From an uncultured Lachnospiraceae bacterium (GTDB lineage: Bacteria; Bacillota; Clostridia; Lachnospirales; Lachnospiraceae), in the NCBI GenBank assembly GCA_905203555.1, contig CAJKWK010000003.1:32032-96031 (forward strand): 64,000 bases of DNA, written 5' to 3'. Shown one piece after another: positions 11,591 through 45,208 of this stretch. Below the pieces are notes generated by a model. That model worked only from the letters and a program-made list of their open reading frames with translations, ran no database searches and had not been told where the DNA came from. Positions within the stretch are counted from its first letter, which is position 1; the number at the start of each line of letters is the position of its first letter. The translations under genes and the position numbers were made by a program.

Positions 11591-11609
11591 CACAGGAAAA
11601 GAGTGCAGC

Positions 11610-12908: not shown

Positions 12909-12924
12909 AGAGCGCTTCCTCCTG

Positions 12925-13761: not shown

Positions 13762-13781
13762 TCTGTACTCCTGTATCTTTT

Positions 13782-15452: not shown

Positions 15453-15473
15453 CTGTGCTTCCTCCTTTTGACT

Positions 15474-30409: not shown

Positions 30410-30459
30410 GAAAAGAATTCTATAACTATCATTGATTTGATAATTACAGAATTCTTTTC
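30410..30459 (-). terminator. long-loop hairpin downstream of the URO-D-family gene (possible terminator)
   Basis: GAAAAGAATTCT (30410-21) and AGAATTCTTTTC (30448-59) form a 12-bp stem with a 26-nt loop. On the minus strand it is followed by AATTTTCT. TTCTTTTC at 30392-99 offers an alternative pairing. Confidence 0.35.
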
Positions 30460-30500: not shown

Positions 30501-31505
30501 TTATTTATAATACTCTTCTACCGCATCAAAGAACGCCTGAATATTTTCTATCGGTGTCTGCGGTGGCATATCACATCCGCTGGAGATCACAAAGTTTGGA
30601 TATTTACTGCAGTTTTCTAATAATTTTAACGCCTCTTTCCGCACTTCCTCAGGTGTTCCGTTTCTCAAAACACCTGCCGGATCCAGATTGCCAACGACCA
30701 CTGCATCAGCTGGCAGTCCTTTTAATGTTGTCTCCATATCTACAGCATTTCCTACACTATATGATCCTACACCAATCTCCCGGATATTATCTAACAGCGG
30801 AATAATATTTCCACAATTATGATACATAATCATAAAATTCTCATCCTCTACTGCATCTCGAATTCTCTGCACATACGGAGTAGAAAATTCTTTGATCAAA
30901 CTCGGAGAGAGCAGCCCTGCTGCCGGCTCTGCAATTGCAATTCCGTTAGCTCCAGCTTCTTTAAACGCCAGCGAATACGCAATCAGAAATTCCGTTGCTT
31001 TCTCTAATACAGTCTCCACCAATTCCGGTTCTTCATAACAAAGAATCATTATTTCTGTCATATCCAGCAATCTACCTGCCAGGGAAAACGGTCCGATAAT
31101 CCCCGCAAGAACCGGTCTGTCTGTAATCCGCTGTGCTGCCTCCTTTATTCCCTTAATGCATTCTCCTGTACGTCCTGCTCCTACCTTCGGCACCTCCAGC
31201 TGATCGGCCTCTTCCTCATCATGAACCAATGCAGCCGTAACTGTTGGAACTTCATCTTCAAAATAGCTGACAGGACTTCCAAATGCTTCCGCTTCCACTG
31301 ACAAATCCATCAAACTAAACGCCGCACCTGTATTAAATTTTTTTGCAATTGCCTCCATACAGTCTGCCTGCAAACTTCCATTTCTCACCAGTTCCTCTAC
31401 CGTATGTCCAATCAGCTGAACTCCCGGAAAAGATAAAATCGGGGCTGCTTTTTTCCGCTCTGACTTGATGGTTTCAGCCACCCATTCTTTCATATTCATT
31501 TTCAT
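30501..31505 (-). CDS. uroporphyrinogen-decarboxylase-family methyltransferase (MtaA/MtbA-like methylcorrinoid:acceptor methyltransferase, MT2)
   Basis: 334-aa URO-D fold with candidate zinc ligands YHNCGN and SSGCDMPP, as in MtaA-type enzymes. SD GGAGGAA. Last gene of the M24-MFS-ThrE-sda string. Confidence 0.78.
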   Translation of the reverse strand: MKMNMKEWVAETIKSERKKAAPILSFPGVQLIGHTVEELVRNGSLQADCMEAIAKKFNTGAAFSLMDLSVEAEAFGSPVSYFEDEVPTVTAALVHDEEEADQLEVPKVGAGRTGECIKGIKEAAQRITDRPVLAGIIGPFSLAGRLLDMTEIMILCYEEPELVETVLEKATEFLIAYSLAFKEAGANGIAIAEPAAGLLSPSLIKEFSTPYVQRIRDAVEDENFMIMYHNCGNIIPLLDNIREIGVGSYSVGNAVDMETTLKGLPADAVVVGNLDPAGVLRNGTPEEVRKEALKLLENCSKYPNFVISSGCDMPPQTPIENIQAFFDAVEEYYK

Positions 31506-31602
31506 TCTCTGTTCCTCCTCGAATGGTTCATTTTTCTAAATCATAACATTTTTCCAAAATTATTCTTGTAGTAAATCTATTTTTTTTGTCATAATTTAAG
31601 AT

Positions 31603-33195
31603 TTAGCGGGCAGCATCTCGAATATCCTGCTCTTTCGCCAATTGCGCTCCACATGGAGTAATGCATAATCCACCCTTGCAGGTACATCGTAATTCCGAAG
31701 GAAGCTGTTTTCCTACTCGAAATAAAGTCTCAGCCGTCTGATCCAGTGGTATTAACGGATCAAATCCACCCATAATCATATTTGCAGATACAACCGCATT
31801 TGCTGCTGACATTGCATTTCTATTGATACATGGAATCTGCACCAACCCGGCTACCGGATCACAAATTGTCCCAAGAATATTCTGAACAGCACAAGATGCA
31901 GCCATACAGCACTGTTCCGGAGTTCCGCCCATCATATACACAAGCGCTCCCGCAGCCATTCCCGATGCCGCCCCCGGCTCCACCTGACATCCATATAATT
32001 CAGCCGAATAATTGCAATCTTTACTCATTACAATTCCTATTACAGAAGTTACAAACATCGCTTTTACTTTTTCTTCCATAGAGAGCCCCAGATGATTTGC
32101 TGTTCCAAGAACAGCTCCCGGAAAGATTCCCGCCGAACCGCCTGTAGGAGCACAAAGTACAACGCCCATAGCACTGCTGTATTCCATTGTAGCCATGGCC
32201 CATGGAACTGCCGTATTCAACACACCCATGTCCAACGCTTTTGTATTCTTCTTTATATACTGTTCCACTTTTCCCGCTGTTGGCTCAATGATGCCAGACA
32301 TATCAATTTCACCTTTTAATGCCTCTTTGGAACTATGTTCCATAGTCTCAACTACACCTTCCATGTACTTCCAAACTGCTTCATAGTCCCAACCACTTCG
32401 AGCCATTTCATATGCGATCCCAAGTTCCCATAATTCTTTTCCGTTTTCTTTTGAAACCTTCAGCATTTCTTCCGCACTTACAAACGGAATTTTTGCATGC
32501 CGATTGGATGGAACAGCTAATACCGGTTTTACATATCTTACTTCTTCTACATGTTCCATTTCTTTCACTTTTTCCAAAAATTCTTTCGGTACTTCCATAC
32601 GTTGCTTTAAATTAATCAAACATTTTCCTTCAAAACTTGAAATAGCATTTCCTTCATCCTCCGGAAGCCTTGCCTGCAATTGTTCCATAAACTGCTCTGC
32701 ATCCCTTTCCGAATAATCCGTAAAAATAAGAACCTCATAGCAATCTCCTACAATCGTAATCGGATATCCATCTACTTGTAACAATTTAACTGTTCCGCCT
32801 CCAGTAGAATCCGAATGCACCTCCACCACTTTTCCTTCTGTATTTTCAAGGATTAAATGAGAAATATTGGGTACAGTCGGCGGGAAATCCTCGATTACAA
32901 ATTCTACTTCTATTCCAGCCGCCTTCGCATCTGAAAATGAATTTCTCAATGCAGGGTCTTCCGGTCTTCTTCCCAGCAAACCATTGACATAGCCCATATC
33001 AGACCTCTGTCCCTTATACATTAACGTATACGCCCCTTCTTTTGCAAACGCGATTGTCGCCTTTTTTAACGCCCCTGGCAACAACTGTTGTGCCAGATAG
33101 CCAATGCGAGAAGGACCGCAAGTATGAGAACTGGATGGTCCAATCATAACCGGTCCTACAATATCATTAAATACGCTTGGATTTTGTCTTTTCAT
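31603..33195 (-). CDS. sdaA: L-serine ammonia-lyase, iron-sulfur dependent, single-chain (beta-alpha fused)
   Basis: N-terminal SdaAB-like SVFNDIVGPVMIGPSSSHTCGPSRIG and GGGTVKLLQVDGYPI, followed by an SdaAA-like C-terminus (CAPTGGSAGIFPGAVLG...CDPVAGLVQIPCINRNA). The 530-aa length is consistent with a fusion. Confidence 0.85.
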   Translation of the reverse strand: MKRQNPSVFNDIVGPVMIGPSSSHTCGPSRIGYLAQQLLPGALKKATIAFAKEGAYTLMYKGQRSDMGYVNGLLGRRPEDPALRNSFSDAKAAGIEVEFVIEDFPPTVPNISHLILENTEGKVVEVHSDSTGGGTVKLLQVDGYPITIVGDCYEVLIFTDYSERDAEQFMEQLQARLPEDEGNAISSFEGKCLINLKQRMEVPKEFLEKVKEMEHVEEVRYVKPVLAVPSNRHAKIPFVSAEEMLKVSKENGKELWELGIAYEMARSGWDYEAVWKYMEGVVETMEHSSKEALKGEIDMSGIIEPTAGKVEQYIKKNTKALDMGVLNTAVPWAMATMEYSSAMGVVLCAPTGGSAGIFPGAVLGTANHLGLSMEEKVKAMFVTSVIGIVMSKDCNYSAELYGCQVEPGAASGMAAGALVYMMGGTPEQCCMAASCAVQNILGTICDPVAGLVQIPCINRNAMSAANAVVSANMIMGGFDPLIPLDQTAETLFRVGKQLPSELRCTCKGGLCITPCGAQLAKEQDIRDAAR

Positions 33196-33662
33196 AGTTT
33201 CTCTCCTCGTTTTCTATTAAAATCACATATTTTTGAAATTGCACTTGACGGAATCTCAAAGGTAAATAAAATTCCCAAAACAATAGCTACCGCAATCCCC
33301 AGTGTATGTCTTCCATACCCCGAACATTGAAATATATTTCCTTCTATTAAATAATAAATAGTCCAATATATCCCTACTCCGGGGACAAGCGGAAAAATTC
33401 CAGACAATAAAAATACCGTAACAGGACATTTTACACTTGTACTGCAGATTCTGGAGCATAACACAACAAATACTGTCGCACACAACGTACTTATATAAGA
33501 AGAAACATTTGTTGCATTTGTTAACAGCCAGCAGATCCCCCATCCCAGACCGCCTATCACACCACAGTGCAAATAATATTTATGCGGAACCTGAAAAATA
33601 GAAGAAAAAGCAATTGTACCCAGAAATGCAGCAAAAAATTGAGATAATAACGATATAACCAT
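33192..33662 (-). CDS. threonine/serine exporter (ThrE) family protein, small subunit (second copy)
   Basis: The ATG at 33662 has SD GGAGGAAG; the track start at 33710 is a TTG inside the upstream gene. Motif LSGIFPLVPGVGIYWTIYY parallels the 3220-3654 paralog. Its stop overlaps the sdaA start. Confidence 0.72.
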   Translation of the reverse strand: MVISLLSQFFAAFLGTIAFSSIFQVPHKYYLHCGVIGGLGWGICWLLTNATNVSSYISTLCATVFVVLCSRICSTSVKCPVTVFLLSGIFPLVPGVGIYWTIYYLIEGNIFQCSGYGRHTLGIAVAIVLGILFTFEIPSSAISKICDFNRKRGEKL

Positions 33663-33678
33663 GCATCTTCCTCCGTTT

Positions 33679-34437
33679 TTATAACAAATAAATCGCAATA
33701 CCAACTCCAATTGCCAGTCCGCTAGTAATTAAAAGCGTATCCAGAAACCGGACCCAGCCCGCAATATAATTTGAATTAGCCAGTTCTCTGACTGCTGTTA
33801 CAAATGAAACGCCCGGTAAATAAGGCATAATCCCTCCCAGAATAATACTATTTACATCATCTCCTATTCCCAACTTAAAAATGATCAACCCTGCGCCTGC
33901 AGCAACAAAACCTGCCATTATATTCCTTATGATTTTAGATGGAATTTCTTTTCTTGTTTCAAAGAAACAAGTCAAACAATATAAAAACACTCCCGAAAGA
34001 AATGCTGCGCCGGAATCATATAAGTTTCCTCCAAATGTATAACAAAAACAAGCAGCTCCAAGACCATATGCCAGCATAGTTTCCAGCACGCTCTTGTTCC
34101 CGAGTTTTTCTATGTACTTTAACTCTTCCAGCGCATCTTCTACAGCATATTCTCCCTGCTCGATCCTTCTGGACAATTCATTGACCTTTGTTATTTTTTC
34201 CATATGCACACCTGAAAATGGAATATGAGACACCTTTGCATACATCTCAAACCGCTCATTTTCCGATGTAAAGAAAATCCCATTACTTAAAACAAAGATC
34301 CCATTCTCAATCAATCCATAGTATTGTAAAATTCTCTGCATTGTTTCTTCTACGCGATAGATTTCTGCTCCACTTGATAAGAGGATACTGCCAGCTCTCA
34401 TGGCAGTATCCAATATATTTTTTTCATATTCTTTCAT
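33679..34437 (-). CDS. threonine/serine exporter (ThrE) family protein, large subunit (second copy)
   Basis: LDTAMRAGSILLSSGAEIYRVEETMQRIL signature, shared with the 3651-4424 paralog. C-terminal TM segments carry GIMPYLPGVSF. Confidence 0.72.
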   Translation of the reverse strand: MKEYEKNILDTAMRAGSILLSSGAEIYRVEETMQRILQYYGLIENGIFVLSNGIFFTSENERFEMYAKVSHIPFSGVHMEKITKVNELSRRIEQGEYAVEDALEELKYIEKLGNKSVLETMLAYGLGAACFCYTFGGNLYDSGAAFLSGVFLYCLTCFFETRKEIPSKIIRNIMAGFVAAGAGLIIFKLGIGDDVNSIILGGIMPYLPGVSFVTAVRELANSNYIAGWVRFLDTLLITSGLAIGVGIAIYLL

Positions 34438-34445
34438 TCAATTCT

Positions 34446-35735
34446 TTATTTTTTCTTTTTTGACTCCTGAATCAGTTTTCTTTTTTCTTTTGTTACTCCC
34501 ATCCATGCAACACTGGCAAGTAAACCTACGACAGCCATCACGCAGAGCACACCAAAGAATACCTTATATCCCGTAGCTCCTGCCCATTTATCCAGACAAA
34601 CGCCTGCGATCAACGGCATGAAAAATTCAGCACTGTAACCAAGAGGTGTAATAATCGCTGTTGCTGTACCTGTAATCTCCAACGGATATTCTCCTTCTTC
34701 CATAATCGCAAAATGCATGGATTGAATTGCATACATAGATACATAAATTGCTGCAATAAACACTAGCAGCATCCAAAGCATGGACGGCTGTCCCGGTGTA
34801 AAGATAACTCCTGCAATTCCGGCAATCATAATCCCAAACGAAACTGCCGCAACTTTAGAGGAACCTATTTTATCTGCGATCACACCTGATGCGAAACATC
34901 CCACCGGGCGGCAATACTGTGAAAAATATCCCAATGCAGCAGCAATAACAGCAGACATTCCAAATACGCTGGTAGCATACGGAGTAATATAGAAATAACT
35001 GATGATCATTCCGTAAGAACAGAAAATAATTACAATCTGCAGCCAGGTTGTCGGCATTTTTGCAACACGTTTTAAAATTGCTTTATTGAAAAGTTTCTTG
35101 TCTTTTTCCTCTTTTTCGCCGTCGCTCTCCGGCTCCTTAAACATAAAGAATACCAAGATACCAAGTAATACATTAATCAATGAGTATACAATAATAATTG
35201 CAGACAATGCAGTCTGATCAGAATATACTTTTGCAAGATATCCAAACATTGCAAGAATCAATGCAGACTGAACCATATTGACAACCCCACGTCCACCTTC
35301 AAAGAAACCAAACGCTTTTCCCTGCTCATCTGAATTTGCAAGAGAACGTATCGCCTTTACCAAAGCACTCCAAAATGTAAGAATAGAGGTAATTCCCCAG
35401 ACACAATGAATTAGCATGACAACCGGATATGGCGGGAATAACAGCAATACAAAGCCCAAAACTCCCGTTGTAATAAGTGAAATTGTCATCAGATATCTTG
35501 CCGGCCAGCGGTCTGCACAAAATCCACCTAATGCATATGCAATAATACTGAAACCTCCATATGCGCTCCCAAGCGCTCCCATCTGCGTATTTGTAATCCC
35601 AAAACTAGCAACAAATGCATCATAATAATAATTTCTGAAGTATGGCAATGCATAAATCATTGCTCCTGACAAAACCAAGATAATCAAAGTTGGCATATTT
35701 TTCTTTAATTTACTTCCTGTATTCTTTTCGCTCAT
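34446..35735 (-). CDS. MFS transporter
   Basis: 429 aa with about 12 predicted hydrophobic segments, a central charged loop (EPESDGEKEEKDKK) and an MFS-like motif GGFCADRWPAR after TM2. SD AGGAGAG. Confidence 0.8.
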   Translation of the reverse strand: MSEKNTGSKLKKNMPTLIILVLSGAMIYALPYFRNYYYDAFVASFGITNTQMGALGSAYGGFSIIAYALGGFCADRWPARYLMTISLITTGVLGFVLLLFPPYPVVMLIHCVWGITSILTFWSALVKAIRSLANSDEQGKAFGFFEGGRGVVNMVQSALILAMFGYLAKVYSDQTALSAIIIVYSLINVLLGILVFFMFKEPESDGEKEEKDKKLFNKAILKRVAKMPTTWLQIVIIFCSYGMIISYFYITPYATSVFGMSAVIAAALGYFSQYCRPVGCFASGVIADKIGSSKVAAVSFGIMIAGIAGVIFTPGQPSMLWMLLVFIAAIYVSMYAIQSMHFAIMEEGEYPLEITGTATAIITPLGYSAEFFMPLIAGVCLDKWAGATGYKVFFGVLCVMAVVGLLASVAWMGVTKEKRKLIQESKKKK

Positions 35736-35771
35736 AACAACTCTCCTACACTTCCTAATTTGTACTTTTCA

Positions 35772-36872
35772 TTATCTGATCGGAACAATGCTGTCTTCTA
35801 ATTTTTTACTTCTGTGTGTCAATGTTACACACCCATCTTCTGTTACCAAAATATCGTCTTCCAGACGAACTCCGCCGATTCCCTGCAGATAAATTCCCGG
35901 CTCGATCGTAAAAGTCATGCCTTCTTCCAGTACCAGTTCATTTACCGACGTAATATACGGTTCCTCATGTACACTTAAACCAAGTCCATGACCTGTTCTA
36001 TGTAAGAAAAACTCGCCATATCCTGCTTCTGTAATATAATCTCTTGCTGCTTTATCAATTTCTTTTGCCTTCACTCCCGGTCTTACTTTTGAAATCGCAG
36101 TTAAATTAGCGTGAAGCACGATATTATATATTTCTTCCAGTTTTGGATTACCAACATGCCCAACAAACAGACACCGGGTTGTATCTGACCAATATCCTTT
36201 GTAATAGGCACAGAAATCCATTAAAATAATATCGCCTTCTTTAAATCCATAGTCTCCGCTTGCTCCATGCGGATTTGCAGAGTTGTCTGCCGCCTGAACC
36301 AGGATAATAATTTCCTCTGTACTAAATCCCGGATACTGAGACATGTAATTTAAAAGCATCATATTCAGTTCACTTTCCGTCATTCCAGGCTTAATCTTGT
36401 CAAATACATAGTCAACTGCTTTATCAACAATTTCAGCCGCCGTCTGCATTGCCTCAATTTCTTTAGCATCTTTATACATACGCAGTCTGGAAATGCTATC
36501 TCCGATATCACATACTTCGCATGGAAGTGAAGTGAAAATATCCCCAATCATCATATTAAAATATTTCTTCTCTACTGCCAGCTTACCACATTCTCCAATT
36601 ACTTCTTCGATCAGTGCTGCCGGACCATTTTCATCCAAATATGTCTTTTCCGGAACAACGCCTTTCATACAATCCGTATCAACACTTGGAACCATCATTA
36701 CAAAAGTTTCTTTCTCTGCATCTGCAACCAACGCATAAAAACGTTCGTATGGTGTAATGTGGATTCCAGTAAGATAATCAACAGACATCGGATCACCAAT
36801 GACTGCTTTATCAAATCCGTTTTCTCTTAATAATCTGCATGCTTTTAACTGTCTTTCTCGAATTAAATCCAT
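35772..36872 (-). CDS. M24B-family metallopeptidase (Xaa-Pro dipeptidase / aminopeptidase P-like hydrolase)
   Basis: Creatinase/prolidase N-domain plus a pita-bread domain. Metal ligands look intact: DFCAYYKGYWSD, HRTGHGLGLSVHE, TIEPG and VRLED. Confidence 0.85.
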   Translation of the reverse strand: MDLIRERQLKACRLLRENGFDKAVIGDPMSVDYLTGIHITPYERFYALVADAEKETFVMMVPSVDTDCMKGVVPEKTYLDENGPAALIEEVIGECGKLAVEKKYFNMMIGDIFTSLPCEVCDIGDSISRLRMYKDAKEIEAMQTAAEIVDKAVDYVFDKIKPGMTESELNMMLLNYMSQYPGFSTEEIIILVQAADNSANPHGASGDYGFKEGDIILMDFCAYYKGYWSDTTRCLFVGHVGNPKLEEIYNIVLHANLTAISKVRPGVKAKEIDKAARDYITEAGYGEFFLHRTGHGLGLSVHEEPYITSVNELVLEEGMTFTIEPGIYLQGIGGVRLEDDILVTEDGCVTLTHRSKKLEDSIVPIR

Positions 36873-36907
36873 TTTAAATTCTCTCCTTATGAAATTATAT
36901 TATTTTT

Positions 36908-36923
36908 TTCACGTTTATGATTT
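36908..36923. promoter_or_regulatory. 16-bp motif TTCACGTTTATGATTT, copy 1 (candidate regulator-binding site upstream of the M24 operon)
   Basis: Exact 16/16 match to 37917-37932. Lies 36-51 nt upstream of the M24 ATG, between a TTGACT(-35)-like box and the SD. Confidence 0.45.
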
Positions 36924-37013
36924 ATTTAAACAATAACATGGTTTTTGTAAATAGTCAACCATATTCCTTCACACAAAATCTTATTTTTATGAAATTTGCA
37001 CATTTTTGACAAT

Positions 37014-37054
37014 AAAAAAAATCGGACTTCCTATTATAAGTAGAATCGTCCGAT
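37014..37054 (-). terminator. intrinsic terminator after the XRE-cupin regulator gene
   Basis: Minus strand reads ATCGGACgattctacttataataggaaGTCCGAT followed by TTTTTTTT. Confidence 0.6.
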
Positions 37055-37082
37055 TTGTATATTTTCACATATATGATATTAT

Positions 37083-37670
37083 TTACTCTTCTTCATCTTC
37101 TTCACTAGAGAATTCCTCTTTGTTGATCCGCGTCCAATGCGATACAGACGCTTGATCCGTACTCTTATTAAAAAAGCTGTGTTTTGTATTTGCCTTTACA
37201 AAAATACTATCACCTTCTTGAAGGTCAATCTCCTCATTTTCCAATAAGACTGTCAGTTGACCGCTCAGCACAGTTCCTACCTCGTCAAATTCATGGGTCC
37301 AGCGCTCTTCTCTCGTATCAGACATCGGCTCCAAATGCACAAATAAAAAAGAAACCTGTTCAATCCCAAAGTCTACGATATCAATTTTCATATCTGATTG
37401 ATTATCCAGATAACTCTCGCGTTCTTCTTTTTTGATCACTATTCGTTCCTGTGCGTTTCGTTCGATAAGGTCTCCTAGAGATGTATTAAAAACCTCACAT
37501 ATTTTCTGCAGATTCATCAATGTAGGACTTGTAATATTTCTTTCTATATTACTCAAATAACCCGTTGAAAGTCCTGTTTCACTCGCCATCTGCTGCAATG
37601 TAATTTTATTTGCCTTTCTAAGACTCCTGATACTTCTTCCTATTTTGTCAAGATTCCCCATACTGTTCAC
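37083..37670 (-). CDS. XRE-family HTH + cupin-domain transcriptional regulator
   Basis: HTH_3 (IRSLRKANKITLQQMASETGLSTGYLSNIERN) and a C-terminal cupin (GTVLSGQLTVLLENEEIDLQEGDSIFVKANTKHSF). The start may instead be the ATG at 37661. Confidence 0.85.
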   Translation of the reverse strand: MNSMGNLDKIGRSIRSLRKANKITLQQMASETGLSTGYLSNIERNITSPTLMNLQKICEVFNTSLGDLIERNAQERIVIKKEERESYLDNQSDMKIDIVDFGIEQVSFLFVHLEPMSDTREERWTHEFDEVGTVLSGQLTVLLENEEIDLQEGDSIFVKANTKHSFFNKSTDQASVSHWTRINKEEFSSEEDEEE

Positions 37671-37868
37671 TTCTTTCTTTATTCTTTTCTATTTCAACAT
37701 TTTCATATGTTTTTTTCCTATACTATAATTTTATTTAAAATTTCAAGATGAAAAACATATTTCTCTTCTATTATACACGATTTTTTTGCATTTTCCAGCT
37801 TTTTCGCCTTAAAAATATTTCGTTATTTTTTATTTAAATGAAATTATATATATTTTTTCACAAATGTA

Positions 37869-37897
37869 TTGACTTTTAATATTCTCCGATATATGAT
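37869..37897 (+). promoter_or_regulatory. candidate sigma-A promoter of the MttB-family gene
   Basis: TTGACT (37869-74), 17-nt spacer, TATGAT (37892-97), about 60 nt upstream of the ATG at 37958. Confidence 0.55.
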
Positions 37898-37916
37898 GGG
37901 TATAACAAAGCAATAC

Positions 37917-37932
37917 TTCACGTTTATGATTT
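37917..37932. promoter_or_regulatory. 16-bp motif TTCACGTTTATGATTT, copy 2 (in the 5' leader of the MttB-family gene)
   Basis: Exact repeat of 36908-36923. Lies between the predicted -10 box and the SD GGAGG of the gene at 37958. Confidence 0.45.
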
Positions 37933-37957
37933 TAATATTTTATCTTGGAGGATTCTT

Positions 37958-39391
37958 ATGTATATTCCACAGCTTAGTTATGCAAATCAGGAACAACTTG
38001 AATTTCTTCACCAGTATAGTGTTGATATTCTTTGCAAGATTGGTATGAAAGTTGAAGATCCTGAGATTCGAAAAGCATTATGCGAACACAATTGTACAGA
38101 AAAGGGTGAGCGCATCTTATTCAGCGAATCTCTAATCGAAAAAACCATTCAAAATTTAAAGCAAACACTTACGTTTACCTGTCACGCATCCGGTAAAAAA
38201 ACAATTGCTGAACTTTATAAAACAATCACACACAGCACCGGTGGTGCGCCATGGATTTTAGATCCCATACATAAAACAAAACGAAACGGTATGTTGACTG
38301 ATCTGGTTGATACCATTCGGGTTATGAACCAACTGCCGGAACTGGACATCCCTTGTGCCTTATTATATCCGTCAGATGTTCCGGCTGAGATCACACAACT
38401 CAAGCAGACAGCTACCATGTTCCAATATTCCAGAAAACCAATCTATGGTCCTGGAGTATCCATGGCAAACAATGCGAAATATATTGCAGAACTTTTTAAA
38501 GTATATGGAGGCGGTGCAGATGAACTGACTGAAAATCCTATTGGTATGGTTGGTATTTCTCCGGAATCTCCTTTATTCTTGCCAAAAGAAATTACAGATA
38601 CTATGAAATATATCATTGGCGCCGGAATCCCTACCAGCGTACTTTCTGCTCCGATGGGCGGTCTTACATCCCCATTATCCGTAGCTGGTACTGTCACTCA
38701 GGCTCATGCAGAAATTCTTGGATTTGCCTGTGTTGCATATTTGATCAATCCAAACTGTACTTTATTCTATGGATCCAGAACATTTTTTGCAAACATGAAG
38801 AACGCACAGAGTATATTGGGCCTTCCTGAAACCGGTATCTCCAGTACACTTTGTGTTCAATTAGCAAATAGGATTGGTTTTATGACAGATATTTATGGTA
38901 TGACTACCACCTCTTGTGCAATGGATGAACAGGCAGCTTATGAAAAAATGCTGAATGGAATTCTTCCTGGTATGGCACATGGTACGATTATTACTGGTTT
39001 TGGATGTCTTGCAAGTAACATGGCTTGTTCACTGGGACAGCTTGTATTGGATAACGAAATGATGGCAATCATCCGAAAAGCACAGCGTGCCATGGAATAT
39101 ACACCTGAAGAAATGGGATTGGAAGCATTGGAAGCAGTCATCAATGATGAGGAAACATTCCTGGTTCAGGATCACACACTGGACCACCTGTATGATGAAG
39201 TATTTCAGCCTGAAATTGGATTTGACAGTGTCTGGGCTGACTGGTCCGCACGCGGCGAAATACCATTAAACGTTCGAGCTGAAGAACGTGCACGAGAACT
39301 CATTCAGAAGGACGGCGATTTTGAAGCTCCCGCCGAATTGATTGCAGAAGCAGAAAAAATTCTGAACTTTGCAGAAAAAGAGCTTATGTGA
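37958..39391 (+). CDS. MttB-superfamily (trimethylamine methyltransferase family) substrate:corrinoid methyltransferase, non-pyrrolysine type
   Basis: 477-aa uninterrupted ORF with no in-frame TAG. Family-like segments are GISPESPL, SAPMGGLTSPLSVAGTVTQAHAEIL and LDNEMMAIIRKA. SD GGAGG. Neighbours are a corrinoid protein and an activator. Confidence 0.82.
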   Translation: MYIPQLSYANQEQLEFLHQYSVDILCKIGMKVEDPEIRKALCEHNCTEKGERILFSESLIEKTIQNLKQTLTFTCHASGKKTIAELYKTITHSTGGAPWILDPIHKTKRNGMLTDLVDTIRVMNQLPELDIPCALLYPSDVPAEITQLKQTATMFQYSRKPIYGPGVSMANNAKYIAELFKVYGGGADELTENPIGMVGISPESPLFLPKEITDTMKYIIGAGIPTSVLSAPMGGLTSPLSVAGTVTQAHAEILGFACVAYLINPNCTLFYGSRTFFANMKNAQSILGLPETGISSTLCVQLANRIGFMTDIYGMTTTSCAMDEQAAYEKMLNGILPGMAHGTIITGFGCLASNMACSLGQLVLDNEMMAIIRKAQRAMEYTPEEMGLEALEAVINDEETFLVQDHTLDHLYDEVFQPEIGFDSVWADWSARGEIPLNVRAEERARELIQKDGDFEAPAELIAEAEKILNFAEKELM

Positions 39392-39406
39392 AACCTTTAA
39401 AACTAG

Positions 39407-39451
39407 TAAAAGAAAACGAGGCGATGATCAAAAACCGCCTCGTTTTCTTTT
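39407..39451. terminator. bidirectional terminator between the convergent MttB-family and activator genes
   Basis: AAAAGAAAACGAGGCGatgatcaaaaacCGCCTCGTTTTCTTTT. Confidence 0.75.
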
Positions 39452-39453
39452 AC

Positions 39454-41640
39454 TTAAAACATCATATATTCTACATAAAACTCCTGAAACTTTTTATTGG
39501 ATGAAAGTTCAATTTCTTTTGAGCTGGTTACAATTTCCTCAAAACGCACCTCCGCTTCTGGATCTCTCAGGCTTTTTACGAGCCCCTTCAAACAACTATT
39601 TCCAATTGCAATGATCTTATCTACACATTCCTCTGGAAAAAGTCCGATTTGAATCGCTTTTTCAACATTCATTTTATATCCAAATCCGCCTCCAATATAA
39701 ATATGCTCAATCTCATCATAGGAAATTCCATACTCCAGAATCAACGTTTCCAAGCCAGCCCTCACTGCAGACTTGGCAAGCTGTATCTCTCTGATATCTT
39801 TCTGATAAAAGCGAATATCTTCTGTATGCGATAACTCAAAGCCATCCTCGAAATAGTCTTCTTCCATCAGACCACTTTCTTCTATCACCCCTGCCTTCAA
39901 GAGCTCATATGTCGTTTCCAAAACACCGGTTCCACAAATCCCCAAAGGTTTTTTCCCACCGATTGTTTCCACTTTTGCTTTCTTCTTTTCATCTACAGAA
40001 ACACTACAGATTGCTCCAGGTATACTTCCCGTACCACATGTAATATTTCCACCCTCAAATGCGGGACCTGCCGCTGTTGATGTGACATAAATCTGATTTT
40101 GTTTTCCAATAGCCATTTCTCCATTGGTTCCAAGATCAATCAAAACTGACACCGATTCATTTTTATGGAAATCAAGTGCATATAAACCTGCTGTAATATC
40201 CCCTCCAACATAAGTCGATATTCCCGGATATATCGTAATGGGGAAATCCATCTGATCCGTAGAAAGCAGGTCTTTTGCACAAGTATGTATGGTATCTATG
40301 TTTACCGGATGGAACGGATATACCCCCAGTGTTTCACAGGAATAACCCATCAACAGATGAACCATTGTAGTATTGGCGCCGATCACCATCTTCTCTACTT
40401 GAAGAGTTCCCGCTTGTGTAAGGCTCAAAACTCCCTTATATAAATCATTTTGTATCATGGCTCTCAAAGCATCCCTTTTCCCCTGATTCGATGCATTGAT
40501 CCGACTGATTACATCTGCTCCATAAGCGCGCTGTCGATTAATCGAAGTATACGTATCAATTACACTTCCATTATTCTGATCTACCAGCTGCATCGCAATT
40601 GTCGTAGTGCCAATATCCGCTGCAATCGCAAAAGAATGTTTCTCCTCGTTATCCGGAGTGCTTTCAACTCCATTCTCAATGTCAGAATCATGCGCTGTAA
40701 CTACCTCCATTTCATTCTCATTCCCAACAATCCTGATTTTACAATCAGACGCAGGAAACAGGGAACACGCCAACCGCCATCCAATTTTCAGTTCTTCCTC
40801 TGAAAAGAAAATTTCATCCTCTCCGCTTGCCGGACATTCGCCCGCCAAAACCAGCACCTTACATTTTCCACACGTTCCTCTTCCCGCACAAATTGCAGGA
40901 AGATAGATCTGATGTCTTTGCAAAGCCGTCAATAAACTTTCTGACTTTCTTGCAAAGATTTCACGTTCTTCTCCCTCTATCTGTACCAAAATCGATACCA
41001 TATCTGTTTTTCTTCGTTTGCAGGTATAATTATCACAGCGCCGACAGTCATGCTGGGTTCGAAATCTTTTTTCATTATCATCCAGCAAATATATTGAGCA
41101 AAGCGTTTTAACCGGATCGTACATAAAACTAGGCTTAATCAAAATTCCTTCCTTCTCTGCCCCTGTTGCCTCGTATGCCGCTTGCTGCTGTTCCATTGGG
41201 AAATCTTTCGGAATTTCTGCTCTTCCCACAATTCCCTTTTTCTTCATGCGCCCATATTGAATCACATCCTCTTCCAATTGTCCATCCATCTGAAACAGGT
41301 AATCATCTGCAATCGCATCTGCGAGCATTCCCTTTACATAATCTCCTTCCGCAAAAAACCGCGAACTCCAGTTTTCCATTTCTTTTCCAATGGAACATAT
41401 TGAATAAAGCGCCTCTGTAATCTTTTCCCCCTTATACTCTATTTCTTGATTTTTTAAACTTCCAATTTCCAACAATGCTATCGGTTTTATTTTTTCTTTT
41501 GCCAATGGCAGCATCTCCTGTAATTCCTCGAAAACTTCCTCATACAGATGATGCCCCTGGAAAATCCCCATCCAACTCAATACATTCTCTACTGATATTG
41601 TAATTTTAAAGTCTGTCTTTCTCATTGTATTTTCACCCAT
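39454..41640 (-). CDS. corrinoid reductive activator (RamA/RACE-type: 2Fe-2S ferredoxin + ASKHA ATPase domains) with an extra ~210-aa N-terminal domain
   Basis: Ferredoxin motif CAGRGTCGKCKV...LAC near residue 250. ASKHA/DUF4445-like part with AADIGTTTIAM...IDLGTNGEMA...GICGTG. A start at the second ATG (41625, GGGTGA 7 nt upstream) is equally possible. Confidence 0.8.
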   Translation of the reverse strand: MGENTMRKTDFKITISVENVLSWMGIFQGHHLYEEVFEELQEMLPLAKEKIKPIALLEIGSLKNQEIEYKGEKITEALYSICSIGKEMENWSSRFFAEGDYVKGMLADAIADDYLFQMDGQLEEDVIQYGRMKKKGIVGRAEIPKDFPMEQQQAAYEATGAEKEGILIKPSFMYDPVKTLCSIYLLDDNEKRFRTQHDCRRCDNYTCKRRKTDMVSILVQIEGEEREIFARKSESLLTALQRHQIYLPAICAGRGTCGKCKVLVLAGECPASGEDEIFFSEEELKIGWRLACSLFPASDCKIRIVGNENEMEVVTAHDSDIENGVESTPDNEEKHSFAIAADIGTTTIAMQLVDQNNGSVIDTYTSINRQRAYGADVISRINASNQGKRDALRAMIQNDLYKGVLSLTQAGTLQVEKMVIGANTTMVHLLMGYSCETLGVYPFHPVNIDTIHTCAKDLLSTDQMDFPITIYPGISTYVGGDITAGLYALDFHKNESVSVLIDLGTNGEMAIGKQNQIYVTSTAAGPAFEGGNITCGTGSIPGAICSVSVDEKKKAKVETIGGKKPLGICGTGVLETTYELLKAGVIEESGLMEEDYFEDGFELSHTEDIRFYQKDIREIQLAKSAVRAGLETLILEYGISYDEIEHIYIGGGFGYKMNVEKAIQIGLFPEECVDKIIAIGNSCLKGLVKSLRDPEAEVRFEEIVTSSKEIELSSNKKFQEFYVEYMMF

Positions 41641-41661
41641 TTTAATCTACTTTAGCCATTA

Positions 41662-41892
41662 TAACAAAATAAACTCTTTTTGTCGCAAAAAGAGTTCTTC
41701 ATTACACCATATTTTATAGCAAGCCTCCTACCCCAGACAATGCTATAAGAAAATTGATCCAGTATCCTGACTCACAGTTCATCCTCCAAATCCCTTCTCA
41801 TCTTTCGACAATGGTCTTTGATTCTTCGTCCCTGTTTACAGTAGGGGTAAGCCTGTACCAGATTTTCACTGGTTTCCTTTTATCATTTTCTT
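41662..41892 (-). promoter_or_regulatory. cobalamin riboswitch with intrinsic-terminator expression platform
   Basis: Minus-strand RNA reads GGAAACCAGUGAAAAUCUGGUACAGGCUUACCCCUACUGUAAACAGGGACGAAG ... GACCAUUGucgaaagaugaGAAGGGA ... then the B12 box AGUCAGGAUACUGG (41772-41759). The terminator is AACUCUUUUUgcgacAAAAAGAGUU + UAUUUU (41696-41662). This matches the conserved cobalamin aptamer core. Confidence 0.8.
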
Positions 41893-41905
41893 CATCTGTC
41901 TTTTC

Positions 41906-42547
41906 TTATTTTGCAGCCAATACCAATTCCTTCGCAAGATCAGCACAGGAAGCCGCATCCGGTGTATAATGGTCTGCACCGATTTGTTCGCAGAAGCTTT
42001 CATTTACAGGTGCTCCGCCAATCATAACAATATACTTATCGCGAACTCCTCTTTCTTTTAACAATTCAACCACTTCCTGCATTTTAGGCATTGTTGTTGT
42101 AAGTAATGCAGACATACAGATCACATCTGCTCCAACCTCTTCTGCCTTATCCAAAAATGCTGCTGATTCAACATCAACGCCTAAGTCGAACACTTCGAAA
42201 CCGGCTCCTTTTAACATCATTACAACCAGATTTTTACCGATATCGTGTAAGTCTCCCTGCACGCTACCAACAACTGCTTTTCCCAAAGGCTCATTTCCAA
42301 TTTCGATTAATTTTGGTTCAAGAATAGTAAGTCCTGCATTCATTGCACGTGCTGCAACAAGAACTTCCGGAACAAAAACTTCATTGTTTTTGAATTTTGC
42401 ACCGATGATCATCATTCCACCCAATAATCCCTCATTAAGGATCAGCTTTGGATCCATTTCTTCATCGATCGCCTGCTGCACCAATGCTTTTACATTTTTT
42501 GCACGCCCTTTTTGTAAATACTCTGAAATTTCCTGAATCAGTTCCAT
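41906..42547 (-). CDS. corrinoid (cobalamin-binding) protein of a methyltransferase system
   Basis: 213 aa: an N-terminal B12-binding_2 helical cap and a Rossmann B12-binding domain with DxHxxG (GDLHDIGKNLV) plus MSALLTTTMP. SD GGAGGAGAG. Confidence 0.88.
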   Translation of the reverse strand: MELIQEISEYLQKGRAKNVKALVQQAIDEEMDPKLILNEGLLGGMMIIGAKFKNNEVFVPEVLVAARAMNAGLTILEPKLIEIGNEPLGKAVVGSVQGDLHDIGKNLVVMMLKGAGFEVFDLGVDVESAAFLDKAEEVGADVICMSALLTTTMPKMQEVVELLKERGVRDKYIVMIGGAPVNESFCEQIGADHYTPDAASCADLAKELVLAAK

Positions 42548-42738
42548 TTTCTCTCCTCCGTTTGTTTTTATTTATCTATAATTATACATTTACCCTCAAA
42601 TTCTTTTTGTACTTTCTTTAGAAAATTATAAATTATTTACCTATTTTTGTCGATAGCATACATTTTCTTCAAATCTATGATATGATAATACTAAATTTAT
42701 AAATAAAATTTTTCGTATCGTATTTTAGGAGGTATCTC

Positions 42739-43986
42739 ATGAAACCATTACTATACACCATTGTCCCGGAGGAAAATATACATTCTATGGCTCTTACCTT
42801 TAGTAAATGCGTAAAACTCCCCATACAGATTATTAACGAAGAAGGAAAACTATTAGTTTCAGAAGGAGATTCTCCACATTTTTGTACACTTTTTCAAAAA
42901 CATCTTCCTTCTTATGATTCCTGTGAAAAAATGCATCTTTCCGCCAGTAAAAAGGCAATTACACTTGGAGAGGCCTATATTTTTGCCTGTCATGCAGAAT
43001 TAAATCACATTGTTTATCCACTTTTTACAAGAAACATCTTCCTCGGTTCCATTCTGGTCGGTCCTTTTTTAATGGATACACCCGATTCTATTCTGATCAG
43101 TGATATTGCAAAAAAATATCCGTTTACTACAGAAGAAGCTCTGGAACTATACGATGAAAGTAATTCCATCCCGGTCATTGAACCAGCACTTGTAAATCAC
43201 ATCAGCCATCTGCTCTTTTATTTATTTTCAAACTTAATTGCAGACAGCAAAAAGGAATTGCTTCAAAACAACCAAAAACTTTTACAACAGTCCAGAATCA
43301 ATGAATCCATCCAGCGTTATAAGGCTGAAAATCTTAAAACCAATTCCTATCCCTATGAAAAAGAAAAGGAATTGATCAATCAAGTAAAAAAGGGGGACTC
43401 AAAAGCTGCAAATGCTGTTCTAAATGATTTATTGGGCTATGTGTTATTTTCACAAGGAAATAGTCTGGATGCAGTAAAACCTCGCGCCATTGAATTGTGC
43501 ACCCTGCTTTCACGTACTGCAATCGAAGGAGGCGCGCCCACAGACAGTATTTTAAAATTAAACAATCACTTTTTGCAGAATCTGCAGAAAATTGACTCCA
43601 TGGATACCCTATGCCATAAGCTCCAGGAAGTGGTAGAAACGTTCTCGGAAAGTATGTTTAATTATATTCCTTCAAAAAACAACGAAATCATCAAGCGTGC
43701 CTTGCAATACATATATGAACATTTTCAGATGCCGGTTACTTTAGAGGATGCAGCAGAATCTGTACATCTCCATCCATCCTATTTTTCCAGTATGTTTAAG
43801 AAATCCACCGGCTCTTCTTTCAAAGAATATCTGAATATGGTTCGAATAGAAGAAAGCAAACGCCTGCTCACTAACACCGATTTTTCCATTATCGACATTG
43901 CCATTGCAGTCGGTTTTGAAGATCAAAGTTATTTTTCAAAAGTATTCAAAAAGTACACCGGTCTTACGCCAAAACAATTTCGCTGA
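42739..43986 (+). CDS. PocR-sensor-domain AraC-family transcriptional regulator
   Basis: The N-terminal ~160 aa is PocR-like (FCTLFQKH...CEKMHL...FACHAELNHIVYPL). The C-terminal AraC HTH pair is TLEDAAESVHLHPSYFSSMFKK...IIDIAIAVGFEDQSYFSKVFKKYTGLTPKQFR. Divergent from the corrinoid protein gene. Confidence 0.85.
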   Translation: MKPLLYTIVPEENIHSMALTFSKCVKLPIQIINEEGKLLVSEGDSPHFCTLFQKHLPSYDSCEKMHLSASKKAITLGEAYIFACHAELNHIVYPLFTRNIFLGSILVGPFLMDTPDSILISDIAKKYPFTTEEALELYDESNSIPVIEPALVNHISHLLFYLFSNLIADSKKELLQNNQKLLQQSRINESIQRYKAENLKTNSYPYEKEKELINQVKKGDSKAANAVLNDLLGYVLFSQGNSLDAVKPRAIELCTLLSRTAIEGGAPTDSILKLNNHFLQNLQKIDSMDTLCHKLQEVVETFSESMFNYIPSKNNEIIKRALQYIYEHFQMPVTLEDAAESVHLHPSYFSSMFKKSTGSSFKEYLNMVRIEESKRLLTNTDFSIIDIAIAVGFEDQSYFSKVFKKYTGLTPKQFR

Positions 43987-44043: not shown

Positions 44044-45207
44044 TTATTTTATAACACGTACTTTTAGTACTCCTTCAATTGTTTCCAGTTTTTTCTCTAC
44101 AGCTTCCGGTACTTCTGCCTCTACGTCAATCATTGTATAAGCATATTCTTTTCGACTCTTATTTGTCATCAAGGAAATGTTCATATTTTCCTGTGCCAAT
44201 ACCGCTGTCAGCTGACCGATCATATTTGGAATATTTTTATGCAAAATCGTAATTCTGTTTCCTGCCTCTTTCACTCCCATATCACATGCCGGATAGTTAA
44301 CAGAATTCTTAATATTTCCATTTTCCAGATAATCTCTTAACTCTTTTACTGCCATTCTGGCACAGTTTTCTTCTGATTCCTCTGTAGATGCTCCAAGATG
44401 TGGAATTACAATTGCGCCCTTCACTCCTGCAATTTCCGGTGTCGGGAAATCTGTAACATAACGTTTTACTGCACCAGACACAAGTGCGTCTACCATCGCC
44501 TCGCTGTCTACAAGTACATCACGTGCAAAATTCAGAACAACAACACCTTTTTTCATCAAACTGATTGCATCTTTATTAATCATTCCTTTTGTATCCGGAA
44601 GAGCTGGTACATGAATCGTAATATAGTCGCAATCTTTATATAATTCATCCACTGTTTTTGCATGATGGATATTTCTGGACAATCTCCATGCTGCATCTAC
44701 AGAAACATACGGATCATATCCATATACTTCCATTCCCAGATGCACTGCCGCATTTGCAACAAGAACTCCGATTGCACCCAGTCCAATTACACCTAACTTC
44801 TTGCCTTCCAATTCTGTTCCTGCAAATGCTTTCTTTGCTTTTTCTGCCGCCTTAGCAAGATCTCCGTCTTCTTCATGTTCCTGTACCCAGTTTATGCCTC
44901 CGATTACATCTCTGGCTGCCAAAAGCATTCCTGCTATCACAAGCTCTTTTACACCATTCGCATTTGCCCCCGGTGTATTAAATACTACAATTCCGTTTTC
45001 AGCACATTGTTCTAATGGAATATTATTAACACCTGCTCCTGCTCTTGCAATTGCTTTTAAATTCTTACTAAACTCCATCTCATGCATTCCGGCACTCCGA
45101 ACCAGAACTGCATCTGCCTCATCTATAGTTTCTGTTCTGCTATAATTCTCATCAAAAAGTTCGATTCCCGTCTGGGCAATCGGATTCAGGCAATGATAAC
45201 GATACAT
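44044..45207 (-). CDS. serA: D-3-phosphoglycerate dehydrogenase (with C-terminal ACT domain)
   Basis: 2-hydroxyacid dehydrogenase fold (GKKLGVIGLGAIGVLVA...HLGASTEESEEN) plus an ACT-like tail. The ATG at 45207 lies directly after the serC stop. The track's earlier start overlaps serC. Confidence 0.85.
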   Translation of the reverse strand: MYRYHCLNPIAQTGIELFDENYSRTETIDEADAVLVRSAGMHEMEFSKNLKAIARAGAGVNNIPLEQCAENGIVVFNTPGANANGVKELVIAGMLLAARDVIGGINWVQEHEEDGDLAKAAEKAKKAFAGTELEGKKLGVIGLGAIGVLVANAAVHLGMEVYGYDPYVSVDAAWRLSRNIHHAKTVDELYKDCDYITIHVPALPDTKGMINKDAISLMKKGVVVLNFARDVLVDSEAMVDALVSGAVKRYVTDFPTPEIAGVKGAIVIPHLGASTEESEENCARMAVKELRDYLENGNIKNSVNYPACDMGVKEAGNRITILHKNIPNMIGQLTAVLAQENMNISLMTNKSRKEYAYTMIDVEAEVPEAVEKKLETIEGVLKVRVIK

Positions 45208-45208
45208 C

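Follow-up and report, generated by a model that had tools for sequence, protein, structure and literature searches.

A corrinoid methyltransferase locus of a Lachnospiraceae bacterium with an unusual MttB homologue and a prolidase-type partner: a possible route for N-methylated dipeptides

Results

Gene content of the locus

We analysed a 64,000-nt stretch of DNA from an uncultured gut Lachnospiraceae bacterium (assembly GCA_905203555.1, contig CAJKWK010000003.1, positions 32,032 to 96,031; "the window"), which contains a gene cluster for corrinoid-dependent methyl transfer. Its central gene encodes an MttB homologue, the putative substrate-specific first methyltransferase (MT1), with an aspartate (Asp311) at a position that is an arginine in the characterized betaine and phosphocholine enzymes; in many other genomes the gene is accompanied by that of a prolidase-type hydrolase. 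An earlier note on the sequence had described the cluster as a complete non-pyrrolysine MttB system with no assignable substrate. Genes were identified with a map of the open reading frames (ORFs) combined with Pfam and NCBIfam scans of the window, and RNA elements with Rfam. The following features were found:

37958-39391, plus strand: MT1 of the MttB superfamily ("D311" clade), 477 aa, single uninterrupted ORF, PF06253
37083-37670, minus strand: HTH_3 and Cupin_2 regulator (PuuR-like; HTH-cupin), from Pfam, divergent from the MttB gene
35772-36872, minus strand: M24B prolidase-type metallohydrolase (Xaa-Pro dipeptidase-like), Creatinase_N and Peptidase_M24
34446-35735, minus strand: MFS_1 transporter (Pfam), presumed uptake step
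33679-34437, minus strand: ThrE-family membrane protein, large subunit, PF06738
33192-33662, minus strand: ThrE_2 small subunit, PF12821 in the called gene
31603-33195, minus strand: fused beta-alpha Fe-S L-serine-dehydratase-like enzyme, SDH_alpha and SDH_beta
30501-31505, minus strand: URO-D/MtaA-like methyltransferase (UROD_A), 334 aa, URO-D 218.7 bits, candidate second methyltransferase (MT2), last gene of the M24 operon
30411-30458, minus strand: terminator-like hairpin (hairpin scan) ending the transcription unit from M24 to URO-D
39406-39453, strand unspecified: hairpin with a 20-bp stem between the convergent MttB and activase genes, likely bidirectional terminator
39454-41640, minus strand: RACE/RamA-type reductive activase, 728 aa, Fer2 (residues 220-296), RACo_middle and RACo_C_ter (ASKHA domain)
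41671-41697, minus strand: terminator-like hairpin after the riboswitch (hairpin scan)
41739-41942, minus strand: cobalamin riboswitch aptamer, RF00174, 55.6 bits
41906-42547, minus strand: corrinoid (methyl-carrier) protein, 213 aa, B12-binding_2 and B12-binding, DLHDIG
42739-43986, plus strand: PocR-sensor/AraC-type regulator with PocR, HTH_AraC and HTH_18, divergent from the corrinoid-protein gene

The four protein types of a corrinoid system that the earlier note had listed (MT1, corrinoid protein, activator and MT2) are present at the positions it gave, with ORFs and Pfam/NCBIfam domains in agreement, and its description of the system as complete holds at the level of protein families but no further. 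All four parts lie inside the span it had drawn, but the end of that span is occupied by the PocR-AraC regulator. The neighbours it had named (M24 hydrolase, MFS transporter, ThrE, ThrE_2, serine-dehydratase-like enzyme) were also found, and the HTH-cupin regulator is additional.

From URO-D to M24 every gene is on the minus strand, with a spacing of 0-100 bp, and the HTH-cupin gene follows beyond a gap of 210 bp. Hairpin and promoter scans suggest five transcription units, i.e. M24 through URO-D, MttB alone, the activase, the corrinoid protein, and PocR. Housekeeping genes of amino-acid biosynthesis flank the locus on its outer sides. An identical 16-kb arrangement is present on several independent metagenome contigs (including that of L083; L-numbers designate related loci), and a relative with 89% identity has the same gene order. 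The locus is therefore not an assembly artefact. The closest genome match is a metagenome-assembled genome of Marvinbryantia, with an MttB identity of 84%.

MT1 belongs to a separate MttB clade

MT1 matches PF06253 (MTTB) over residues 3-452 with 211.7 bits (cut-off 25). Against TIGR02369, the model for the pyrrolysine-containing MttB, it scores 258.9 and stays under the cut-off of 525. Thr316 aligns with the pyrrolysine of Methanosarcina barkeri MttB, and there is no in-frame stop. We assign MT1 on this basis to the MttB superfamily but not to its pyrrolysine group, in line with the claim that it is uninterrupted and non-pyrrolysine.

The AlphaFold model of MT1 has a predicted local distance difference test (pLDDT) value of 89.6. 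Its structural similarity (TM score) is 0.93 to MttB (7xcl, 24% sequence identity) and 0.91 to MtgB (9yce, 21% identity) as well as to 2qne. The identity to every solved superfamily member is 19-24%. When the solved structures were searched, the pyrrolysine MttB and the glycine-betaine enzyme MtgB scored about equally, both with the single sequence (143 and 109 bits, respectively) and with a profile of MT1 relatives (256 and 251 bits). A protein search returned 115 MttB relatives at E <= 1e-20, none of which has a specific name.

For clade assignment, 87 sequences were aligned with MAFFT and a neighbour-joining tree was calculated. Gly95, Asp311, Thr316, Thr346 and Asn354 of MT1 align with Y97, R312, L, H348 and F356 of MtgB. 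In MtgB, R312 and H348 hold the carboxylate of the substrate, while Y97 and F356 hold the trimethylammonium group, and R312 is conserved in MtgB, MtcB, MtpB, MtyB and MthB (PMC13080624, 2026). Neither the aromatic pair nor His348 is kept in MT1. Asp311 is found in every protein of a monophyletic group that reaches down to about 36% identity, and MtgB-like paralogues encoded in the same loci keep Tyr, Arg and His at the marker positions. The tree shows a separate D311 group with the MtgB-like paralogues outside, and the Eubacterium limosum enzymes are set apart by the published conservation of R312. Together with the low identities to solved members, this places MT1 outside the characterized specificity groups, as had been surmised. 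In this alignment MT1 fails the sole residue rule common to all characterized quaternary-amine enzymes, i.e. the arginine that binds the carboxylate or phosphate, and its branch appears to be a distinct, previously unstudied clade with an inverted charge at a key substrate-binding position.

Further residues are invariant in the clade and differ from MtgB, MttB and 4yyc, namely H92, C133, Y137, S201, A231-P232, R274, N333 and F422. H92, Y137, S201, A231-P232 and R274 are, like D311, situated in or just past predicted barrel strands, and strand ends are where the active sites of TIM barrels lie.

Besides the D311 clade, two distant genomes (L077, 13720-16285; L050, 3783-5249) contain members of a second, unrelated MttB clade with Pro, Phe, Cys, His and Gly at the five marker positions. 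Genes for an OCD/mu-crystallin protein and for Dpp transporters are present there as well, and the second clade may have a related substrate.

The MttB gene is linked to a dipeptidase-type hydrolase in several phyla

For an overview of the gene neighbourhoods, clade-specific peptide patterns were used to select about 140 loci, 69 of them in species-representative genomes and 70 in metagenomes. These were searched with the proteins of the window, and neighbours were counted within 10 kb. The close set comprised the 27 loci with at least 60% MttB identity and at least 6 kb of flank. An M24 gene was present in 23 of these 27 loci, an MFS gene likewise in 23, and an HTH-cupin gene in 24. For comparison, around other MttB genes, in 22 loci without a D311 copy, the corresponding numbers were 1, 0 and 0. 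When all D311-type genes with enough flank were considered, an M24 or amidohydrolase-type dipeptidase was found for 53 of 82; this classing by pairwise BLAST columns may misassign very distant homologues, and reliance is best placed on the MAFFT results and on the close set with its 60% limit.

The arrangement of the genes varies considerably. In Desulfobacteraceae and Synergistaceae contigs, M24 immediately precedes MttB on the same strand, and it is also directly upstream in a metagenome contig from ENA (L077). Desulfotruncus and its relatives have an operon of HTH-cupin, M24, DppBCDF with an SBP_bac_5 binding protein, and MttB; in Peptococcaceae-type loci a Dpp/Opp-type ABC system takes the place of the MFS transporter. 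One metagenome contig (L090) contains on a single strand OCD, a corrinoid protein, M24, MFS, MttB, a pterin-binding MT2 and another corrinoid protein. The sister branch that has its MttB genes in tandem (L032, L033, L099) lacks M24 and contains instead a cog1228 amidohydrolase, the best relatives of which are Xaa-Pro dipeptidases of the amidohydrolase type and prolidases. We interpret it as a non-homologous replacement of M24 with the same predicted specificity. These three loci also carry a Dpp-type ABC system, an AlaDH/SbnB-like gene of the OCD family, DUF2284, a corrinoid protein, an activase and a URO-D protein. Dipeptidase and MttB remain linked although the gene order, the kind of transporter (MFS or Dpp ABC) and even the fold of the hydrolase (M24 or amidohydrolase) differ, and this linkage spans Bacillota, Synergistaceae and Desulfobacteraceae contigs. 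Lactonifactor longoviformis, Bilifractor porci and Desulfotruncus alcoholivorax are cultured carriers.

ThrE and ThrE_2 are co-located in many Lachnospiraceae loci, and a serine-dehydratase-like gene occurs in a minority of the related loci (L006, L014, L024, L029, L031, L083, L084, L096, L098 and L105). The conserved unit of HTH-cupin, MttB, prolidase-type M24, transporter and ThrE-type membrane proteins is the predicted substrate-specific half of the system. Its recurrence answers the earlier question whether the neighbourhood is conserved elsewhere. The same note had judged this neighbourhood to be unlike described systems; we agree, and the searchable literature contained nothing that describes the clade or links MttB proteins with prolidases or methylated dipeptides.

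Several peculiarities of single loci were observed. The D311-type MttB pairs of L032, L033 and L099 (about 8400-11400) have Tyr at the pyrrolysine position in one copy and Ser in the other; the two copies may carry out successive demethylations. The Lactonifactor locus (L011) is interrupted by a reverse-transcriptase ORF of the group II intron-like type (1556-2374, minus strand), located between a pair of pterin MT2 and corrinoid-protein genes and a duplicated MFS-M24 pair. Several Ruminococcus/Blautia loci contain a gene for a CD0519/CD1768-family membrane protein (590 bits) between M24 and HTH-cupin (L007, 7823-8995, minus strand; also L008, L009 and L015), which may be an extra transporter of the system.

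Properties of the hydrolase and of the serine-dehydratase-like enzyme

The best solved relatives of the M24 protein are the Xaa-Pro dipeptidases of Pyrococcus horikoshii (229 bits) and P. furiosus (201 bits). It aligns end to end with archaeal prolidases at 190-229 bits (residues 10-354 on 1wn1), and the alignment with the P. horikoshii enzyme includes the motif blocks in which M24B enzymes have their five metal ligands (D, D, H, E, E). The protein remains below the cut-offs of the NCBIfam equivalog models for PepQ, with scores of 210 versus 630 and 205 versus 500. Its sequence is therefore best described as prolidase-like, with a specificity that the curated models do not fix exactly.

Creatinases lack the metal ligands of M24B enzymes. 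We rejected the possibility that the M24 protein is a creatinase, since it retains the metal-ligand motifs and matches prolidases best; the 60 best solved relatives listed, down to an E-value of about 8e-13, include no creatinase.

The serine-dehydratase-like protein falls under all equivalog cut-offs (e.g. 227 versus 243 for TIGR00718). The cluster that contains its gene is directly flanked by serA-like (2-Hacid_dh) and serC-like (Aminotran_5) genes (44044-46291, minus strand), so that genes for serine synthesis and breakdown are adjacent, which may be coincidence. Downstream of a LysR regulator gene, the window contains a second ThrE-family gene (3651-4445, minus strand), a paralogue of the ThrE and ThrE_2 genes of the cluster in which the two regions are fused.

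The corrinoid half is derived from a widespread Lachnospiraceae module

The corrinoid protein consists of a B12-binding_2 cap and a Rossmann-type B12-binding domain, with DLHDIG at residues 99-104, in agreement with the GDLHDIG motif noted earlier. It scores 196.9 with TIGR02370, just under the cut-off of 215.3, and far below the cut-offs with the MtgC, MtbC and MtaC models. The activase has a Fer2 Fe-S domain, a RACo middle domain and a C-terminal ASKHA domain, i.e. the architecture of RACE/RamA proteins with a predicted ATPase activity, and the previous assignment as a RamA/RACE-type 2Fe-2S and ASKHA activator is confirmed. Ahead of the 2Fe-2S domain it has an N-terminal extension of about 215 aa with a cysteine cluster (C181, C199, C202, C207), and a Pfam search with residues 1-211 gave no match.

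The best solved relative of the URO-D protein is MtaA (4ay7, 91 bits). Its residues His229-x-Cys231 and Cys311 align with the zinc ligands of MtaA and are invariant in five aligned homologues. The score with TIGR01463 is 164.9 (cut-off 235.4). The family and the HxC...C ligands had thus been recognized correctly before, but the role as MT2 is that of a candidate, and relatives of the system use a pterin-binding MT2. A His-Cys-Cys zinc sphere is typical of S- and Se-methyltransferases of the URO-D family, while O-demethylases replace the cysteines (preprint, PMC10418091). Based on this zinc site of the thiol-methylating type, we propose a thiol-type acceptor for the enzyme; tetrahydrofolate (THF) as the acceptor is not supported by any feature of the protein. 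The genes fhs (13782-15452) and folD (12925-13761), which had been cited in favor of THF, are indeed in the window, but they are housekeeping genes 16 kb away and have little bearing on this point.

Relatives of the URO-D protein with 74-77% identity, designated URO-D(A), are encoded in a very common Lachnospiraceae module with the order URO-D(A), divergent PocR-AraC, corrinoid protein, 2Fe-2S activase, and URO-D(B). URO-D(B) is only 26% identical to URO-D(A); both keep His-Cys-Cys. The proteins of the window share 70-74% (PocR), 82% (corrinoid protein) and 54% identity (activase, over 99% of its length and including the extension) with those of the generic module. URO-D(B) is missing in the window, and the MttB-peptidase unit is placed between the activase and URO-D(A) genes. 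As judged from this comparison, the locus is a chimera, with an MttB-peptidase unit inside a generic Lachnospiraceae corrinoid module.

The generic module raises the question of whether its two halves work together. One explanation is that URO-D, PocR, corrinoid protein and activase form a methyl-S or methyl-Se system (mlp-like) that has lost its second URO-D, and that the MttB-M24 unit is merely inserted, its MT2 and perhaps also its corrinoid protein being encoded elsewhere. The generic module is indeed far more common (at least 7998 relatives of the URO-D protein at E <= 1e-30, compared with the 115 MttB matches), and with its two His-Cys-Cys paralogues it normally resembles clusters linked to methyl-S or methyl-Se. 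Moreover, in most MttB-M24 loci the surrounding 10 kb contain neither a corrinoid-protein gene nor an activase or URO-D gene, and in Lactonifactor (L011), L090 and L091 a pterin-binding MT2 gene is found beside the same MttB-M24-MFS unit. However, in the window URO-D is the last gene of the operon of M24, MFS, ThrE and serine-dehydratase-like genes, with short gaps and a terminator only after URO-D. Furthermore, URO-D homologues with 51-54% identity are the sole URO-D and the sole non-MttB methyltransferase in the self-contained loci L032, L033 and L099, and no pterin-binding gene was found among the ORFs of the window that were scanned. We regard two separate pathways as rather unlikely, yet as the alternative with the strongest claim to attention. 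In our own reading, URO-D(A) would be the constant unloading enzyme (MT2) and MttB an exchangeable MT1, with an acceptor that is unproven.

In L078-L080 (about 900-16600), the generic module adjoins genes for a binding protein of the Dpp type, a peptidase of family M20, a GFO/IDH oxidoreductase and a protein with SDH_alpha only; it may represent another, uncharacterized peptide-linked corrinoid methyl-transfer system of the mlp-like kind. For the locus in the window, an identity as a type 1 mlp cluster was considered and rejected: such a cluster needs at least two distinct URO-D proteins (Mlp2, Mlp3), and the locus has one URO-D plus MttB; L078-L080 have two.

A cobalamin riboswitch upstream of the activase gene

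The riboswitch matches all 189 model positions (1-189) of RF00174 with E = 4e-11, and its score is well above the gathering threshold of 31.5. The final 37 nt of the corrinoid-protein gene are part of the aptamer, which is located upstream of the activase gene and is followed by a terminator-like hairpin. Cobalamin-dependent control of a corrinoid-protein activase is unusual. An Rfam search of eight related loci, including the generic module, detected no riboswitch, and in the generic module the corrinoid-protein and activase genes abut. There is thus no ground for counting the element among the conserved parts of the system.

As a general feature of the window (1-64000), the minus strand carries nearly all genes and the GC skew is strongly negative throughout (-0.09 to -0.34), which indicates that the window lies on one replichore and is read against the given strand.

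Discussion

A possible substrate class

The analysis establishes the families of the encoded proteins, the signature of the clade, the linkage of its genes and the origin of the locus as a chimera, and the conserved neighbours allow a prediction at the level of a substrate class. The earlier verdict of no assignable substrate was therefore too pessimistic, given the conserved M24, MFS, HTH-cupin and ThrE partners. Two unrelated hydrolase folds of the same predicted specificity and transporters of the peptide type suggest that the substrate resembles a dipeptide and has proline, or an equivalent of it, at the C-terminus. Xaa-Pro bonds are not known to be cut by enzymes other than M24B-type or analogous prolidases. 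A positively charged methyl donor is the chemistry of the MttB family. In a methylated Xaa-Pro dipeptide an amide is next to the methylammonium group, and the sole carboxylate is on the distant proline. Taken together, the exchange of Arg for Asp, the new invariant Arg and His at strand ends, the prolidase partner and the peptide-type uptake would be fitted most simply by an Xaa-Pro dipeptide methylated at its N-terminus, and not by one of the simple betaines known as substrates.

The best candidates would be N-terminal remnants of alpha-N-methylated proteins, for example N,N,N-trimethyl-alanyl-proline betaine (TMAP) or N,N-dimethyl-prolyl-proline. The motif of eukaryotic alpha-N-methylation is X-Pro-Lys. 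Both compounds are measured human metabolites, TMAP is listed in tables of plasma, urine and stool, and myosin light chains, which begin with trimethyl-Ala-Pro, have been proposed as its source (PMC6497643, PMC13318015, PMC10927265). A literature search for TMAP in germ-free animals found no paper, and a proteome paper on Formimonas contained no data on the Formimonas homologue of the clade.

We infer the following pathway, including the substrate, the residue roles, the methyl acceptor and the order of demethylation and hydrolysis. First, the MFS carrier, or a Dpp/Opp ABC system in relatives, would import a positively charged N-methylated amine carried on an Xaa-Pro-type dipeptide. The MttB homologue would then bind the dipeptide with Asp311 facing the methylammonium group, while the clade-specific Arg274 and His92 may hold the distant proline carboxylate, and the corrinoid protein, in its Co(I) state, would accept the methyl group. 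Oxidized Co(II) protein would be re-reduced by the activase. The MtaA-like enzyme would unload methyl-Co(III) to a thiol-type acceptor, or, in relatives with a pterin-binding MT2, the methyl group would go to THF. Finally, the M24 prolidase would cleave the unblocked dipeptide, and the released amino acids would be catabolized, by the serine-dehydratase-like enzyme here and by AlaDH/OCD-family enzymes in relatives, or exported by ThrE. M24B prolidases bind the free alpha-amine at the metal centre, so that demethylation of the intact dipeptide is likely to precede cleavage.

As a whole, this mechanism, with demethylation of an N-methylated Xaa-Pro-type dipeptide followed by cleavage, is put forward tentatively, at somewhat less than an even chance. 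That TMAP-type compounds specifically are the substrates is more doubtful, and we are equally hesitant about the wider proposition that anaerobes, including human gut Lachnospiraceae, might possess a dedicated B12-dependent pathway harvesting the methyl groups of alpha-N-methylated protein N-termini.

Several points weigh against the proposed pathway. The link to the substrate, including TMAP-type dipeptides, was drawn from gene context, and genes for prolidases and for transporters of the peptide type are common; the ligands of SBP_bac_5 proteins include compounds other than peptides, and the solved relatives of the substrate-binding protein of Desulfotruncus are generic binders of peptides, nickel and glutathione, which allows no discrimination. 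About one third of the D311-type loci have no dipeptidase in the available DNA, many contigs being short. The carriers include sediment and digester bacteria, and the supply of methylated protein N-termini in these habitats is uncertain. Furthermore, one MttB protein must strip up to three methyl groups, or the dipeptidase must accept a partly methylated N-terminus. The roles of MT1 residues were deduced from alignment and secondary structure, and the separation from MtpB, MtcB, MtyB and MthB of E. limosum relies, besides the published R312 conservation, on the fact that the genome scan with peptide patterns did not return these enzymes. Finally, the source of the rule on His-Cys-Cys sites in URO-D enzymes is a preprint.

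Alternative substrates and orders of reaction

A reversed order of the two reactions would account for the same M24-MttB linkage. M24 would split a methylated dipeptide or amide, and MttB would demethylate the freed amino acid, e.g. trimethylalanine, N-methylalanine or sarcosine. A trimethylated N-terminus should, however, be a poor prolidase substrate in view of the M24B mechanism. The freed betaine or N-methyl amino acid would also have its carboxylate beside the nitrogen, a situation in which characterized enzymes keep Arg, whereas the clade has Asp. There is a precedent for preparation of the substrate of an MttB-family member by an accessory enzyme, the kinase MthK of the phosphocholine system (PMC12155760). 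On balance, we consider hydrolysis before demethylation unlikely.

It is more improbable still that the substrate is an ordinary free quaternary or tertiary amine of a kind not assayed so far and that dipeptidase, transporter and ThrE are a co-regulated set for the use of peptides and amino acids, chemically unrelated to the methyl donor. The six substrates known for the very large MttB superfamily are all small free amines, and most MttB clusters in gut genomes are unassigned, with two of 17 non-pyrrolysine clusters in gut surveys having a characterized member (PMC10653893). Against a free amine stands the linkage that outlasts changes of gene order, transporter type and hydrolase fold across phyla, as well as the location of M24 and MFS between the corrinoid-protein and MttB genes in L090.

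A creatine pathway, in which an M24 "creatinase" forms sarcosine that MttB converts to glycine and further enzymes via serine to pyruvate, is hardly credible in spite of the Creatinase_N domain and the nearby serine-dehydratase-like gene, as the M24 motif blocks align with those of a solved prolidase, the best matches are prolidases, no creatinase is among the solved relatives listed, and the peptide-type ABC transporters of relatives do not fit.

Comparison with known systems

Like the quaternary-amine:THF systems of E. limosum (MtpB, MtcB or MtyB with MtqC, MtqA and RamQ) and of Desulfitobacterium hafniense (MtgB-MtgC-MtgA), the proposed dipeptide system combines a non-pyrrolysine MT1 with a small corrinoid protein of the DxHxxG type, an activase predicted to depend on ATP and a separate MT2, here a candidate. 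The hosts are likewise anaerobic Bacillota. In contrast to these systems, MT1 is 21% identical to MtgB, has Asp for Arg and lacks the aromatic pair of MtgB, the candidate MT2 is of the URO-D/MtaA type instead of pterin-binding, there is no BCCT carrier, and a dipeptidase is the conserved partner. The phosphocholine system of E. limosum (MthB-MthC-MthA with MthK) offers a parallel in that an accessory enzyme of the cluster processes the nutrient. However, the kinase MthK introduces an acidic group and MthB retains the Arg, whereas the locus studied here has a metallopeptidase as the accessory enzyme and an MT1 with Asp in place of Arg.

The MttB-MttC-MtbA system of methanogens with RamA contains the MttB with the closest solved structure, a zinc MT2 of the URO-D family and an activase of the same ASKHA type. 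Here, in contrast, MT1 has no pyrrolysine codon and scores far below the TIGR02369 cut-off, and coenzyme M cannot be assumed as the acceptor in Lachnospiraceae. Type 1 mlp clusters (Kountz and Balskus preprint, PMC10418091) encode a MtaA-like His-Cys-Cys URO-D, a corrinoid protein and a bacterial RACE but no pterin MT2, and the generic module is alike; they have two or three URO-D paralogues and no MttB, whereas the window has one URO-D and an MttB-peptidase unit. As for PepQ (M24B) and the cog1228 prolidases, the likeness consists of the end-to-end alignment with the metal-ligand blocks and of the match of the sister-cluster hydrolase to the amidohydrolase type. The scores are, however, under the equivalog cut-offs, and the genes are inside corrinoid methyltransferase operons, which is not described for the housekeeping PepQ. 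New in comparison with known systems are thus the MT1 clade with its active-site charge, the hydrolase partner, the transporter type and the chimeric build on an mlp-like module.

Implications

The clade and its dipeptidase partner turn an orphan enzyme into one for which a few candidate substrates can be named and tested. That MT2 enzymes of the pterin type and of the MtaA type replace each other beside the same unit bears on the question of whether bacterial MtaA-like enzymes methylate THF or thiols, and if the proposed pathway is correct, the methyl acceptor could be a thiol instead of THF. B12-dependent demethylation would then extend to peptides, with the first MttB-family enzyme acting on a peptide, and the first catabolic fate would be assigned to TMAP-type dipeptides, which are otherwise peptidase-resistant end products. 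This would explain how peptidase-resistant methylated N-termini are recycled in anoxic habitats, and it would tie gut bacteria to circulating TMAP and dimethyl-Pro-Pro, which are markers of kidney function.

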